A DNA stretch of 64,000 nt from Candidatus Omnitrophota bacterium (GTDB taxonomy: Bacteria > Omnitrophota > Gorgyraeia > Tantalellales > Tantalellaceae), in NCBI GenBank assembly GCA_041667545.1, contig JBAYES010000003.1:2467-66466 (forward strand), given 5' to 3'. Position 1 is the stretch's first letter. Every line of letters begins with the position of its first letter. Below the pieces are notes generated by a model, which saw only the letters and a program-made list of their open reading frames with translations, had not been told where the DNA came from and ran no database searches. Made by a program: the position numbers and the translations under genes. Positions 2,294-46,090 of this stretch are shown here, one piece after another.

Positions 2294-4096
2294 ATGAGTG
2301 CAGAGAAGAAAAGAAAAAAGTTCGTAATTTACACACGCTGTTCAACTGATGATCAGGCAAAAGGTGACTTCACCACGCTTGACGCACAGGCTCACCACTG
2401 CCGGAATATGCTTGAAGCGTTCGGTTATGAAATGGCTGATTTCGGTGATAAAGGTATTATTAACGATGACGGTTATTCAGGCAAAGACCTGAACCGCCCC
2501 GGAATCCAGTCAATCCTTAAAGACATACAATCCAAAAAGTCGTTTGACGGAATCATATTTTTTAGGCTTGATAGGCTCACCAGAAACCCTCGTGACCTTT
2601 ACGGCATGATCGATACCTTCAAGGCTGAAGATATAGCCTTTTTATCCGTCAGAGAGAATCTTGATAGCACAACAGCCATAGGCAGAGTTGTGATCGGCAT
2701 CATCGGCTTATTATCAGCCTTTGAGCGTGAACTTACAGGCGAACGTGTAAAAGCTTCAGCTATCGCAAGAGCAAGACAAGGAAAATGGGTAGCGGGTAAA
2801 CCGCCTTACGGATACATACAAGTCAAAGACGGTGAAAGATTATCAAACGGTAGACAACCACACAAAATTGAACTTGATAAAAACCTTGCTCCTCATTTTA
2901 AGATGATCTTTGAAATGGCGGCTGATAACCATTCGCTCTCAACTATCGGCAACGAACTTATCAAAAGAGAAGTCCCCACAGCAAACGGCAACCTCTGGCG
3001 TAAACAGACTATTGCTAAAATACTAAAGAATCCATTTTATAAAGGAATGATTTCATACTCAGGCGAGATAAATAAAGGCAATCACGAAGCAGTTGTAGAT
3101 GAAGAATTATGGAGTAAAGCAAACAAGATAATATCCGCAAGCCTACCCGGACACAGGTTCTTGAAAACAACTCTGGACTACAGCCATCTGTTAAAGGGCA
3201 TTCTGTTCTGCGGAAAATGTGGGAGTTATTTTGTATCAACACACGCCCGAGGCAAAATGGGCAATAAGTTTTATTATTACGAATGCAGTCGAGCAAGACA
3301 AAAACTCGGATGCGATACTAAGCGCATATCAGCAACATCATTTGACCGGGCGGTTATTGACTTTTTAGGCAGGGCGTCCGAAGACCAGAATATTATTGTA
3401 AAAGCTATCGGGAACGCTATTGAGCATTCATCAACACAACTCGATAAATACGATAAGGAAATCCGCCAGTTAAAAAAGAAACTCGACAAAGCCAAAGACT
3501 CTGCTGATAAACTGCTTAACCTTGCCATAGAAAAGGTTATCACCAAGGGACGGACTTATTCAGAAAAAATGGACACACTTGAAACCGAAATCACCGTTCT
3601 TGAAGATAAACTCGGAAAAGCCAAAGCCCGAAGGAAAGCCGCTGAGATGACCGCTAACTCGAACGAATACCTGCACGCAAACCTACAGCTTGCCATGAGA
3701 TACCTCGATCAAGCCCCTCCAGACGCCCAAATCGCCCTTTTAAAGGCACTTATCAAGATACTCAAGGTTTATGACGATCATGTGAAGATGGAAATGTTTA
3801 TAAACGAACCGAACGATGAACTTGTGCAGAACTTACCACTGAAAGAGCCCCAAAAACAACGAACCCCGCTCCTTCTTGAGGAACAGGGTTCGACTGAGCG
3901 TCAACAATGGCGGCTCAGCGGGAACTATAGACGAAAGTCACAACTCCAAGAAATACAACTACTTGTGAAACTTTACAAAAAGCGAAGTATGGGTGCTCTC
4001 ATCTCATTAGGTAAACCAATCGATACTTCCCGCCGTTACGATAAAGGTATTCTATCACGAAACCGCGTAAAAGCCACCGAAACCGTAGTTTTATAA
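2294..4096 (+). CDS. large serine recombinase (resolvase/invertase N-terminal catalytic domain plus recombinase and zinc-ribbon/coiled-coil C-terminal part)
   Basis: Shows the N-terminal serine recombinase signature (VIYTRCSTDDQ...RLDRLTRNPRD). Length is 600 aa. Cys-rich CGKCGSYF...YYYECS region and a long coiled-coil are present. Strong RBS GGAGG. About 70% identical by eye to the second copy at 44423-46090. Confidence 0.85.
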   Translation: MSAEKKRKKFVIYTRCSTDDQAKGDFTTLDAQAHHCRNMLEAFGYEMADFGDKGIINDDGYSGKDLNRPGIQSILKDIQSKKSFDGIIFFRLDRLTRNPRDLYGMIDTFKAEDIAFLSVRENLDSTTAIGRVVIGIIGLLSAFERELTGERVKASAIARARQGKWVAGKPPYGYIQVKDGERLSNGRQPHKIELDKNLAPHFKMIFEMAADNHSLSTIGNELIKREVPTANGNLWRKQTIAKILKNPFYKGMISYSGEINKGNHEAVVDEELWSKANKIISASLPGHRFLKTTLDYSHLLKGILFCGKCGSYFVSTHARGKMGNKFYYYECSRARQKLGCDTKRISATSFDRAVIDFLGRASEDQNIIVKAIGNAIEHSSTQLDKYDKEIRQLKKKLDKAKDSADKLLNLAIEKVITKGRTYSEKMDTLETEITVLEDKLGKAKARRKAAEMTANSNEYLHANLQLAMRYLDQAPPDAQIALLKALIKILKVYDDHVKMEMFINEPNDELVQNLPLKEPQKQRTPLLLEEQGSTERQQWRLSGNYRRKSQLQEIQLLVKLYKKRSMGALISLGKPIDTSRRYDKGILSRNRVKATETVVL

Positions 4097-4179
4097 TGGG
4101 CCCCGTCGCCTCACCTTTATCCCTCTTAGACACGTGGTACCAGCAAATCAGCTAATGTTGTAGGGGTTAGCATACCCTT

Positions 4180-44298: not shown

Positions 44299-44422
44299 GA
44301 TAGAAAGCAAGCATCTGTGATCCCCGACCTTAAGCACCCTAAGCCCTTGTTATAGCTTGACTTGGGATGCCTTCTATTATAGGGTTGGGTCGCATTGCGA
44401 AAAACGAATTCGAAAGGATGTT

Positions 44423-46090
44423 ATGGTTCCGATCATTAAATCAAAGGAAAAGAAAAGATTCGTGATCTACACCCGGTGCTCGACCGACGATCAGGCACAA
44501 GGTGATTTCACGACATTGGACGCGCAGGCGCATCACTGCAAAAACATGATGGACGCCTTCGGGTATGAGCTGGCGACGAAGTTCGGCAAAAACGGAGTTA
44601 TTAACGATGACGGCTATTCAGGTAAAGATTTAAACCGGCCCGGCATACAATCCATTCTCGAAAATATCCACAAACAAAAAAACAAAGCGTTCGACGGTAT
44701 TATATTTTTCAGGCTTGACCGGCTGACCCGTAACCCGCGTGACCTTTACAGCATGATCGACCTTTTCAAAGAAAAAGAGATCGATTTTCTGTCGGTACGC
44801 GAGAACCTTGACAGCTCAACGGCCATAGGCCGCGTGGTTATCGGTATTATCGGGTTATTATCGGCGTTTGAAAGAGAACTAACAGGTGAGCGCGTTAAGG
44901 CGTCGGCGATCGCGCGGGCTCGGCAAGGCAAATGGGTAGGCGGAAAAACCCCGTTCGGATACAAACTCGTAAAGAACGGCGCGCCGCTACCGAACGGCAG
45001 GCAACCTCATAAAATCGAAATAGACGAGCCGTTGGCGCCTTATCTAAAAACCATCTATGAAATGGCCGCCGATAACCGCACCTTAAGCGAAATAGGAAAT
45101 TTCCTTTTGAATCATAAAGTACCGACAGCAAAAAGTTCAATATGGAGGAAACAAACCGTGGCTAAAATCATCAAAAACCCCTTCTACAAGGGCGTGATCG
45201 CCTATGCCGGAGAAAAACACAAAGGCCATCATCCGGCGATCGTCGAAGAAGATCTCTGGGAGGCGGCGAACCGAGCCATAACATCAAAACTGCCGAAACA
45301 CCGGTTCACCAAAAAAGCTAAAGACTATTTCCCGCGTTTGAAAAGGCTCGCGCGATGCGGCAAATGCGGAAGCTTTTTTGTCACTTCGCTCGCGCGCGGA
45401 CAGGGCGGTAAGGCTTATTACTATTATGAATGCAGTCGGGCTCGGCAGAATCTGGGCTGTGACGCCAAACGCATATCCGCCTCGGCGTTCGATCAAGCCG
45501 TGATCGACTTTTTCAGAAGAGCGTCAACCGATCAGCAGGTTATCGTTGAATCTATGGTAGACGCGGTTAAAGACAGCACGGTAAAGGTCAACGTTCTTGA
45601 TAAGGAAATCACGTCTATTCATGAAGAATTGAACAAAAACAAAAAAGCCGCCGAAGAACTGTTGAATCTGGCTATCGAAAAAACTATATCCAAAGGGGTA
45701 ACTTACGCCAAGAAAATGAACGTTCTGGAGCAGGAAATAGCGGCTTTGGAAGCCCAGCTCTCAAAAGTCGAAGCTCAAAGGCAAGCCGCCGATATCTCAA
45801 TGAATTCAGGCCAATACCTATACGAAACCCTGCGATTCGCCATGCAATATCTGGATGAGGCCCCTTGTGACGCCCAGATCGCCCTTCTGAAAGCCCTTGT
45901 AAGGGTTATCGACATCTATGACGATCATGTCATGATGCGCCTGTATGTGGGCCAACCGCTGGATGAACTACCCTGCCGTATAGACCCCGAAAAACAAGGA
46001 ACTCTGCCCGATACTAGTGACATTAGTACCGGACAGAGTTCGCCTGGTCGTCCACTTTGGCGGAGAGGGAGGGATTCGAACCCTCGGTAG
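44423..46090 (+). CDS. large serine recombinase, paralogue of 2294-4096; last 33 nt overlap tRNA-Ser 3' end on the opposite strand
   Basis: Start set at MVPIIKSKEKKRFVIYTRCSTDDQ (RBS AAAGGA). The track ORF start at 44357 lies inside the conserved TTGACT promoter motif. About 70% identical by eye to recombinase 1. Stop codon TAG at 46088-46090. Confidence 0.8.
   Translation: MVPIIKSKEKKRFVIYTRCSTDDQAQGDFTTLDAQAHHCKNMMDAFGYELATKFGKNGVINDDGYSGKDLNRPGIQSILENIHKQKNKAFDGIIFFRLDRLTRNPRDLYSMIDLFKEKEIDFLSVRENLDSSTAIGRVVIGIIGLLSAFERELTGERVKASAIARARQGKWVGGKTPFGYKLVKNGAPLPNGRQPHKIEIDEPLAPYLKTIYEMAADNRTLSEIGNFLLNHKVPTAKSSIWRKQTVAKIIKNPFYKGVIAYAGEKHKGHHPAIVEEDLWEAANRAITSKLPKHRFTKKAKDYFPRLKRLARCGKCGSFFVTSLARGQGGKAYYYYECSRARQNLGCDAKRISASAFDQAVIDFFRRASTDQQVIVESMVDAVKDSTVKVNVLDKEITSIHEELNKNKKAAEELLNLAIEKTISKGVTYAKKMNVLEQEIAALEAQLSKVEAQRQAADISMNSGQYLYETLRFAMQYLDEAPCDAQIALLKALVRVIDIYDDHVMMRLYVGQPLDELPCRIDPEKQGTLPDTSDISTGQSSPGRPLWRRGRDSNPR

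Follow-up and report, generated by a model that had tools for sequence, protein, structure and literature searches.

Two large serine recombinase genes and a probable tandem array of integrative elements at a tRNA-Ser(GCT) 3′ end in an Omnitrophota bacterium

We analysed a 64,000-nucleotide stretch of DNA, here called the window, from a Candidatus Omnitrophota bacterium (assembly GCA_041667545.1, contig JBAYES010000003.1, positions 2,467 to 66,466 of the forward strand). The subject is a pair of related large serine recombinase (LSR) genes, Rec1 and Rec2, together with the tRNA-Ser(GCT) gene into which Rec2 runs. We refer to the DNA that ends with the body of Rec1 as element X, and to the DNA between this point and the tRNA as prophage Y. 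The initial annotation of the window described two LSR genes in the same orientation, and we find them as open reading frames (ORFs) at 2294..4096 (+), which encodes 600 aa, and at 44357..46090 (+), which encodes 577 aa as called. The features of the two genes are:

2241..2267, + strand: promoter-like motif of Rec1, TTGACT, 15 nt, TATAGG, with TG upstream; also conserved at Rec2
2294..3907, + strand: Rec1 body, the LSR of element X, through the codon preceding the conserved Trp
3908..4096, + strand: 'native' tail, WR plus 60 aa including LLVKLYKKRSMGALISLGKPI; in frame with the Rec1 body, and by position the left end of Y
44357..44383, + strand: promoter-like motif of Rec2, TTGACT, 15 nt, TATAGG
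44423..46090, + strand: Rec2, the LSR of prophage Y, in the integrated, truncated form
46058..46150, − strand: tRNA-Ser(GCT), intact, the sole tRNA found by ARAGORN; the Rec2 Trp codon is its CCA in antisense

The Pfam families PF00239, PF07508 and PF13408 (Resolvase, Recombinase and Zn_ribbon_recom) match Rec1 and Rec2 alike, and the motif YTRCSTDDQ is present in both. The AlphaFold (AF2) model of Rec1 has a canonical LSR fold, with long helices at residues 365-454 inserted in the zinc-ribbon region. All parts of an LSR are therefore present, i.e., a resolvase domain with the nucleophilic serine, a recombinase domain and a zinc ribbon with a coiled-coil insert. The two proteins are 63% identical over 540 aa, which is below the 70% or so first reported, and their DNA is 66.6% identical (2308-3790 against 44447-45937 in a self-BLAST). 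The upstream motif that had been noticed for both genes is indeed shared. There are exactly two copies of TAGCTTGACTTG in the window (2237 and 44353), where 0.21 are expected, and about 15 nt after each stands T(A/G)TTATAGGG. This arrangement looks like a sigma-70-like promoter (TTGACT, 15 nt, TATAGG, with an upstream TG). Since the called TTG start of Rec2 at 44357 is the −35 box of this putative promoter, we moved the start to the ATG at 44423. From there Rec2 has 555 aa and is identical to a database protein (P0024) named by NCBI as the recombinase of a Candidatus Omnitrophota metagenome-assembled genome (MAG).

The alignment of the two proteins runs to ...RQQWR in Rec1 and ...RPLWR in Rec2, and then diverges. 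Past the shared Trp-Arg, Rec1 continues for 60 residues. The Rec2 body ends at the Trp (46058-46060), and what follows its Trp-Arg is RGRDSNPR*, translated from the tRNA antisense. As annotated at the outset, the last 33 nt of Rec2 (46058-46090) lie inside the tRNA gene's 3′ end in convergent orientation. The Trp-Arg codons, TGGCGG, are the reverse complement of the terminal CCGCCA of the tRNA. These codons are thus the tRNA end read in antisense, which suggests a crossover site inside the recombinase gene.

The window lies within a 79,433-bp metagenome contig in ENA, of the MEGAHIT-style k141 type, which reaches 14.6 kb further left. The window and the ENA copy (L001) differ at one base (window 1533), and the 14,096 compared bases are otherwise identical. 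The hexamer TGGCGG stands at all three junctions, namely between the host and an orphan tail, between the Rec1 body and its tail, and between the Rec2 body and tRNA-Ser. From left to right the order is flank, TGGCGG, tail 2, X, Rec1 body, TGGCGG, tail 1, Y, Rec2 body, TGGCGG and tRNA, and the core-to-core sizes are 17,946 bp for X and 42,150 bp for Y. The orphan tail (tail 2) lies about 14 kb left of the window and is 70.5% identical in nucleotides to the Rec1-type tail over 129 bp. It is preceded by ...accttcA-TGGCGG, beyond which there is unrelated flanking DNA with a BrnT toxin gene. The left attachment site (attL), made up of a B arm, TGGCGG and the orphan tail, is thus at window position −14038. 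A tblastn search of the window and the 7.7 kb to its left, with the Rec1 tail as query, had given no second copy, and the idea that there is no attL, which followed from that search, was rejected when the orphan tail was found at the far-left end of the contig. A related MAG (L004) also has an orphan tail beside X-like cargo, with a P′ arm near-identical to that of X and an entirely different host flank. The two junctions within the window are:

3888..3936, no strand: hybrid attP-type site at the X/Y junction; Px arm GTTCGACT 3888-3895, core TGGCGG 3908-3913, P′y arm AGACGAAA 3929-3936
46038..46081, no strand: attR; Py arm GTTCGCCT 46038-46045, core TGGCGG 46058-46063, B′ arm ATTCGAAC 46074-46081

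An attP had been expected at Rec1, and an attP-like site with two phage-type arms is found there. The overlap of Rec2 with the tRNA had been taken for an integration junction, and it is one of the attR type, with a phage P arm on one side and a tRNA B′ arm on the other. This B′ arm corresponds to G53-T60 of the tRNA, in the T-loop. What did not hold is the placement of Rec1 inside an otherwise contiguous element, since the DNA to its left is the separate element X. A locus in another MAG (L005) shares 85-88% identity with X over the stretch from HTH_17 to the LSR inclusive (window −3680 to 3913). The match ends precisely at 3913, where TGGCGG ends, and is followed by tRNA-Ser(GGA) with no prophage between. 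Two other X-like loci (L006, L007) also lose homology at 3913. The X-type genes (DUF5659, the primase-polymerase, proteins of 137 aa and 224 aa, and HTH_17) occur elsewhere only in L005-L007. More than 80 loci from genomes and IMG/VR have the Y module (TerL, TerS, ParB-methylase, O-like protein, sigma factor, a 70-aa protein and LSR) next to the LSR. A megablast search of 2001-27000 against phage and plasmid collections returned no match. A contig from another sample of the Joint Genome Institute (JGI; L003) is 100% identical to the left part of the array over 12.2 kb; it had been considered as a possible empty site and was rejected as the same strain.

The locus therefore has what is expected of a tandem island, i.e., serial units at one target that are each bounded by a repeat of the target end, with three copies of TGGCGG and two units. 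We consider it probable that two different integrative elements stand in tandem at the 3′ end of tRNA-Ser(GCT), and that the window holds the right-hand 46 kb of this array. Recombination of two related elements in tandem had been offered as the second choice when the window was first described, and it is this choice that the junctions, the ends of homology and the separate modules support. The homology between tailed and tRNA-fused recombinases ends at Trp-Arg, and the orphan tail is at the far end of X, as expected where attP lies within the ORF of the integrase. We suggest that integration would split the LSR gene. The body would stay by the tRNA and read a few codons into the tRNA antisense, and the tail would move to the opposite end of the element. 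Within a tandem array Rec1, as the upstream recombinase, would regain the tail of its neighbour, and for this reason it looks intact. Since the B arms are arbitrary, only the tRNA half of attB would be sequence-specific, and a resident P/B′ junction may still be a target. An occupied site could then be hit again and arrays would form, with the newcomer inserting between the resident element and the tRNA.

The geometry of the attachment sites can be compared with that of known serine integrases. Imperfect inverted repeats of the attachment type, which had been proposed as a check on the first description, are present as an attP-type dyad centred on the fifth core base. This base, which is tRNA position 72, is the best dyad centre in the reconstructed X and Y sites and in L026, L006 and L007. 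Px GTTCGACT and P′x AGTCGAAC are inverted copies of each other, with all 8 bp matching, and lie 17-24 bp from the centre. In B′, the tRNA arm, ATTCGAAC lies 12-19 bp from the centre and is the antisense of G53-T54-T55-C56-G57-A58-A59-T60, and the P arms match it at 6-7 of 8 positions after a 5-bp shift. For the LI integrase the zinc-ribbon motif lies 16-24 bp from the centre in attP and 11-19 bp in attB (Rutherford et al. 2013, PMC3783163). The sites described here are likewise short and dyad-symmetric, and their 5-bp inward shift is the classical attB/attP geometry of that integrase. The P arm is also coding sequence, for ...GS(P/T)ERQQ, and the P′ arm makes up the first ~8 codons of the ~60-aa tail. 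The core TGG CGG is the antisense of tRNA G73-CCA plus C72/C71, and crossover would take place within CGG, at tRNA positions 71-73. In the host-side B arm no zinc-ribbon motif is recognisable, and this arm differs between the two available attL sites. We suggest that the zinc-ribbon domain would read the universal T-loop sequence. This would explain switching between tRNA identities, since the T-loop sequence and its distance to CCA are common to the targeted tRNAs.

The same junction is found throughout the recombinase family. We surveyed the 120 best homologues and, as separate sets, 73 genome loci that have a complete ORF end and 47 IMG/VR prophage loci. All 120 homologues match Rec1 up to the conserved Trp and then fall into two classes of C-terminus. 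Class 1 is read-through of the tRNA antisense (WRRGRDSNP.., WLPRMDSNH.., WLPREDSNLGPGG, WGG), and class 2 consists of conserved 'native' tails, some of them long and with a helix-turn-helix (HTH). In 57 of the 73 genome loci the in-frame Trp codon TGG is also where a tRNA on the other strand begins, and these tRNAs are Ser, Gln, Asn, His and Glu. The same fusion is seen in at least 27 of the 47 IMG/VR loci, which add tRNA-Arg. The cores are:

TGGCGG: core for tRNA-Ser
TGGCTC: core for tRNA-Asn
TGGCTG: core for tRNA-Gln
TGGGGT: core for tRNA-His
TGGCGT: core for tRNA-Glu

The two classes can be seen side by side in P0029, which has a tail, and the LSR of L049, which is fused to tRNA-Ser(GCT). 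They are 88% identical up to ..TPHWR and diverge only after it, and can thus be matched as a pair showing the two states. In the closed genome of Candidatus Velamenicoccus archaeovorus LiM (NZ_CP019384.1), two Y-type LSR genes lie in the same orientation 48,226 bp apart (L026 at 1,885,435 and L056 at 1,933,661). The upstream LSR is 690 aa with a long HTH-containing tail, and the downstream LSR is fused to tRNA-Gln(CTG). The arrangement had been called uncommon for serine-integrase phages, which is wrong, because tRNA overlap is the rule in this clade and the layout with two LSRs also occurs in the LiM genome.

The tail itself is conserved, and its core, LLVKLYKKRSMGxLISLGxPI, is located beyond the P′ arm. 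Thus, the attachment site does not explain the conservation. The ratio of nonsynonymous to synonymous substitution rates (dN/dS) is 0.19 between tail 2 and the orphan tail of L004 and 0.44 between tail 1 and tail 2, over only 57 codons, and judged by these ratios the tail is under purifying selection. AF2 predicts a weak, low-confidence beta-hairpin. Pfam gives nothing for the short tail or for the long tail of LiM, and only the long tail of P0075 scores (HTH_ParB). In IMG/VR there was no confirmed match to the tail protein and the DNA pattern of P′x gave 0 matches; the tail alignment was too variable to serve as a query. Other types of tail follow the same Trp-Arg, including a short WRC(V/S)C.EIR.(F/Y)Y.. 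and a 60-aa WRTRLQPIRTVTEGN.. (P0006, L006 10001-11677, L088 9409-11070; P0001/L007 916-2718). The P′ arm of L006 and L007 keeps (G/A)TTCGAAC 16-23 nt after the core, and that of L088 does not have it. We infer that loss of the tail changes the behaviour of the recombinase.

The DNA just before the cores of Rec1 and Rec2 can also form a hairpin, antisense to the recombinase gene. The two are:

3852..3892, − strand: terminator-like hairpin of Rec1; 14-bp stem 3860-3892, T-run 3852-3856; free energy (dG) −28.0, z = −2.7
45990..46041, − strand: terminator-like hairpin in the Rec2 linker; 18-bp stem 45999-46041, T-run 45990-45994; dG −34.8, z = −5.9

The Rec2-linker hairpin begins 16 nt beyond the CCA end of tRNA-Ser, with the stem followed by TTTTT on the tRNA strand. 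The Rec1 hairpin has no adjoining tRNA at the X/Y junction. Among 59 family sites, z is below −2 in 52, and 34 have four or more consecutive T within 75 nt. The consensus hairpin of the Ser clade has 17 pairs, 6 of which show compensatory changes. We suggest that the antisense hairpin would terminate transcription of the tRNA. The stem contains the P-arm motif. In the protein, the same stretch is the linker at residues 515-553, which AlphaFold predicts to be disordered. Since the linker is predicted to be disordered and the stem holds the P arm, the linker sequence seems to be set by DNA or RNA rather than by protein function.

Element X is small and has no virion genes. To the left of Rec1 are genes for DUF5659, a 783-aa primase-polymerase, two unknown proteins, HTH_17, YhcG and RadC. 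Further left are a type I restriction-modification (R-M) system, Dcm and a HATPase_c_3 protein, and then the orphan tail. The cargo, which is R-M, takes up more than half of X. At the tail end it consists of type I HsdRMS, RadC and YhcG (PADLOC family PDC-S02; L002 10711-19022). RadC, with 6,211 close homologues, was considered as a marker of host DNA and rejected, since it lies inside X between attL and Rec1. One further feature lies between the primase-polymerase operon and Rec1:

1578..2078, no strand: iteron-like direct repeats with units of ~50 nt and ~71 nt, families D1-D4; also seen in the self-BLAST

These repeats are presumably the replication origin of X. With an integrase, a small regulator, a primase-replicase next to this presumed origin and no virion genes, X has the composition of a satellite or phage-inducible chromosomal island (PICI). 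We infer that X is a satellite-like element of Y-type phages. Genes for interference with a helper were not recognised in X, nor was a recombination directionality factor identified, and HTH_17 of X is a candidate regulator only.

Prophage Y is a larger unit, of which the main regions are:

4180..15911, − strand: left-end cargo, with an HNH endonuclease, two HATPase_c_3 restriction-enzyme-like proteins, Dcm, HNH, Vsr, Z1 helicase, NgoFVII restriction enzyme and Dcm
17980..41710, − strand: virion and packaging genes, with tail fibre/J-like, tail L, tape measure, major head protein, lambda-type portal, TerL (gpA type), TerS and ParB-methylase
41860..41960, no strand: conserved non-coding element of ~100 bp, ..GACATGGACATCG..ATCACTGA..GCGCCTCGCCCGACCCTC..CCCCC..AAGGACCC, upstream of the packaging operon
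42045..43886, − strand: early region, with an O-like replication initiator (42045-42479), small ORFs and a sigma-70-family factor (43353-43886)

Terminase, portal, head, tail, initiator and integrase are thus present in one bounded unit, as in a temperate tailed phage; a lysis module and a repressor were not identified in Y. A DUF4238 gene at 36688-37737 (+) stands on the opposite strand between portal and TerL, with a dip in GC content (0.40 against ~0.50), and looks like a moron insertion. The left ends of X and Y are alike, with tail, HATPase_c_3 and Dcm modules that are 65-70% identical. In both, the DNA beside the recombinase tail is dense in restriction-modification and related genes. 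The HATPase_c_3 proteins of Y are labelled 'REase_II' and paired with Dcm, and NgoFVII also stands with a Dcm. The tail end of both elements is a cargo slot for defence genes.

The ~100-bp non-coding element links the two units. It is kept in 78 loci with the consensus ..GACAnnGACATCG..ATCACTGA..GCGCCTCGCCCGACCC(T/G)C..CCCCC..AAGGACCC. In Y-type phages it is always just upstream of the ParB-methylase/TerS/TerL operon, and it is also found in X-type elements that have no phage; the copy of X is at L001 4700-4810 (window ~−3000 to −2890). No Rfam family matched the element at 41860-41960. It may be a cohesive-end (cos) site or a control site of the late operon. If it is cos, X would be a cos-type satellite.

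A third, unrelated element uses the 5′ side of the same tRNA-Ser:

46111..56078, no strand: element of ~9.9 kb, with a tyrosine integrase at 46166-47320 (−) and an AAA_25 protein

Its two ends are marked by an exact direct repeat of 41 bp (46111-46151 = 56038-56078), which spans tRNA positions −1 to 40, i.e., the 5′ half up to the anticodon loop, and this duplication of the 5′ half is the mirror image of the usual duplication of the 3′ half. Directly to the right of this island is an ORF of 2,510 aa at 56426-63958 (−).

Several observations weigh against the reading of the locus as a tandem array, and three other explanations have to be considered. Canonical LSRs recombine attP only with attB, not with attL or attR, and do not account for a tandem array. 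In the JGI metagenomes there were 0 matches to an empty attB and 0 matches to a junction of Y alone or of circular Y. With no empty, single-occupancy or circle junctions found, the independent movement of X and of Y in this strain is putative. The hybrid junction comes from one metagenome assembly, and L003 covers only attL and the left part of X. The P′y arm, AGACGAAA, is a poor copy of the zinc-ribbon motif, and Py pairs better with P′x (16/25) than with P′y (12/25), so that symmetry cannot assign tails to bodies. The first of these explanations is a single composite prophage of 60 kb that moves as a unit, in which Rec2 and the far-left tail make the working attP and Rec1 is an internal spare. 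The outer junctions, B/P′x and Py/B′, are formally a correct pair of attL and attR, Py and P′x are the most symmetric pair of arms, the separate junctions were not found in the metagenomes, and X and Y have the ~100-bp element and the LSR promoter in common. However, at other loci the X-type and the Y-type modules are found apart, and each ends at a tRNA, and the diverged duplicates of the tail, HATPase, Dcm and LSR modules are the footprint of two elements. Lambda-type terminases cut between two cos sites, and 60 kb is 1.4 times the unit size of the phage with its lambda-type (gpA) terminase. Even if true, the composite would derive from a tandem array. We regard it as improbable, and the account preferred in the initial annotation, of one prophage integrated by Rec2 that carries a spare intact recombinase, is unsupported given that the two types of module are separate in other genomes.

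It could also be that the assembly joined two strains or elements through their similar recombinase genes, since the contig is of the k141 metagenome type, the Rec1 junction is found in that assembly alone and several related contigs break near conserved elements. We find this very unlikely. The DNA of Rec1 and Rec2 is only 66.6% identical, with no near-identical bridging stretch in the self-BLAST of the window, and the Rec1 frame runs on through the junction into a conserved tail. The same layout is present in the closed LiM genome, and a contig from another sample (L003) is 100% identical over 12.2 kb of the left part. Rec1 could instead be an internal resolvase or invertase, or a developmentally regulated excisase that serves the prophage. 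LSRs can act as excisases of intervening elements, and XisF and SpoIVCA are examples. For Rec1 we give this hardly any credence, because its closest relatives (86-94% identity) are terminal integrases at tRNA junctions, searches of the window gave no inverted partner for its site, and this site has arms of the attP type.

The tandem array of X and Y combines features that are known from separate systems. LSR integration, an integrase gene that spans attP and accretion in tandem at tRNA-like genes have each been known already. Mx8 also integrates at a tRNA gene. Its attP lies inside intP, and integration yields a new C-terminus and altered activity (PMC6070905, PMC4383910). The present locus is like Mx8 IntP/IntX and the fusellovirus SSV1 in that attP lies in the integrase coding sequence and the prophage copy gets a new 3′ end. 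Those systems use tyrosine recombinases and long blocks of identity, whereas here there is an LSR with a 6-bp core, and in SSV1 the gene is split near the middle rather than near the end. Since Rec1 and Rec2 are serine recombinases, the resemblance to Mx8 IntP is functional only. By analogy, Mx8 is the nearest precedent for the swap of the tail. The Dehalococcoides ssrA islands are tandem serine-recombinase islands at a tRNA-like gene (PMC3146451). As in the case of their CcrB-like DsiB, and of SCCmec/CcrAB, the units here stand in tandem at the 3′ end of one gene, and a copy of the target end bounds each. The Dehalococcoides islands differ in that they are non-phage, target the tmRNA with crossover in the T-loop, have a 20-bp direct repeat and use a second small recombinase (DsiA/CcrA), whereas here there is a single LSR, a tRNA target, crossover at 71-73, a 6-bp repeat and an attP in the LSR frame. 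The pairing of CcrB or DsiB with CcrA or DsiA (target ssrA or rlmH, ~20-bp repeat) has no counterpart, as there is no second resolvase-domain gene among the annotated ORFs.

The integrase of Listeria A118/LI has the same domain set and also the motif that is 5 bp closer in the attB arm. It is different in that attB here is a tRNA end with one recognisable half-site and attP is inside the integrase gene. In the tRNA islands of tyrosine integrases (Islander/Williams) the target is likewise the 3′ end of a tRNA, the gene is restored and downstream sequence is supplied, though here only 6 nt are restored and there is no displaced tRNA fragment long enough for Islander-type detection. With a repeat of just 6 bp, such elements will escape island finders that search for tyrosine integrases or displaced tRNA fragments. 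Cos-type satellites (P4 and the cos-PICIs) are similar to X in having an integrase, an HTH_17 protein (AlpA/excisionase-like), a primase with iterons and no virion genes. X also has a non-coding element in common with its putative helper, upstream of the packaging operon of the latter. It differs from P4 and the cos-PICIs in that no genes for capsid size or interference were identified in it, it is mostly R-M cargo, and the shared element is only a candidate cos. An incomplete literature search gave no report after Hudson et al. of LSRs that target tRNA 3′ ends or of an attP in an LSR gene.

Taking these points together, we tentatively put forward the possibility that the clade has its own solution to tRNA targeting, in which the T-loop would be read at a fixed distance from CCA, the change between an episomal form with a tail and a truncated form in the prophage would be a built-in switch for directionality or stability, and occupied sites would be open to satellites such as X beside their helpers. 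In this same tentative proposal, ~100 bp of the gene end would pack four functions, namely a protein linker, the P arm, an antisense terminator for the tRNA and a Trp codon that is the reversed CCA. Serine integrases are the main tools for large DNA insertion, and they are usually described at protein-coding or intergenic sites. The clade offers more than 100 natural attP/attB pairs with six tRNA identities, i.e., a ready-made orthogonal series of integrases with targets in many genomes, and it is a natural experiment on DNA reading by the zinc-ribbon domain. The split-gene design is a testable idea for how a serine integrase could sense integration. For the Omnitrophota, a little-known phylum, the findings from this study define a widespread family of temperate phages and a candidate satellite.

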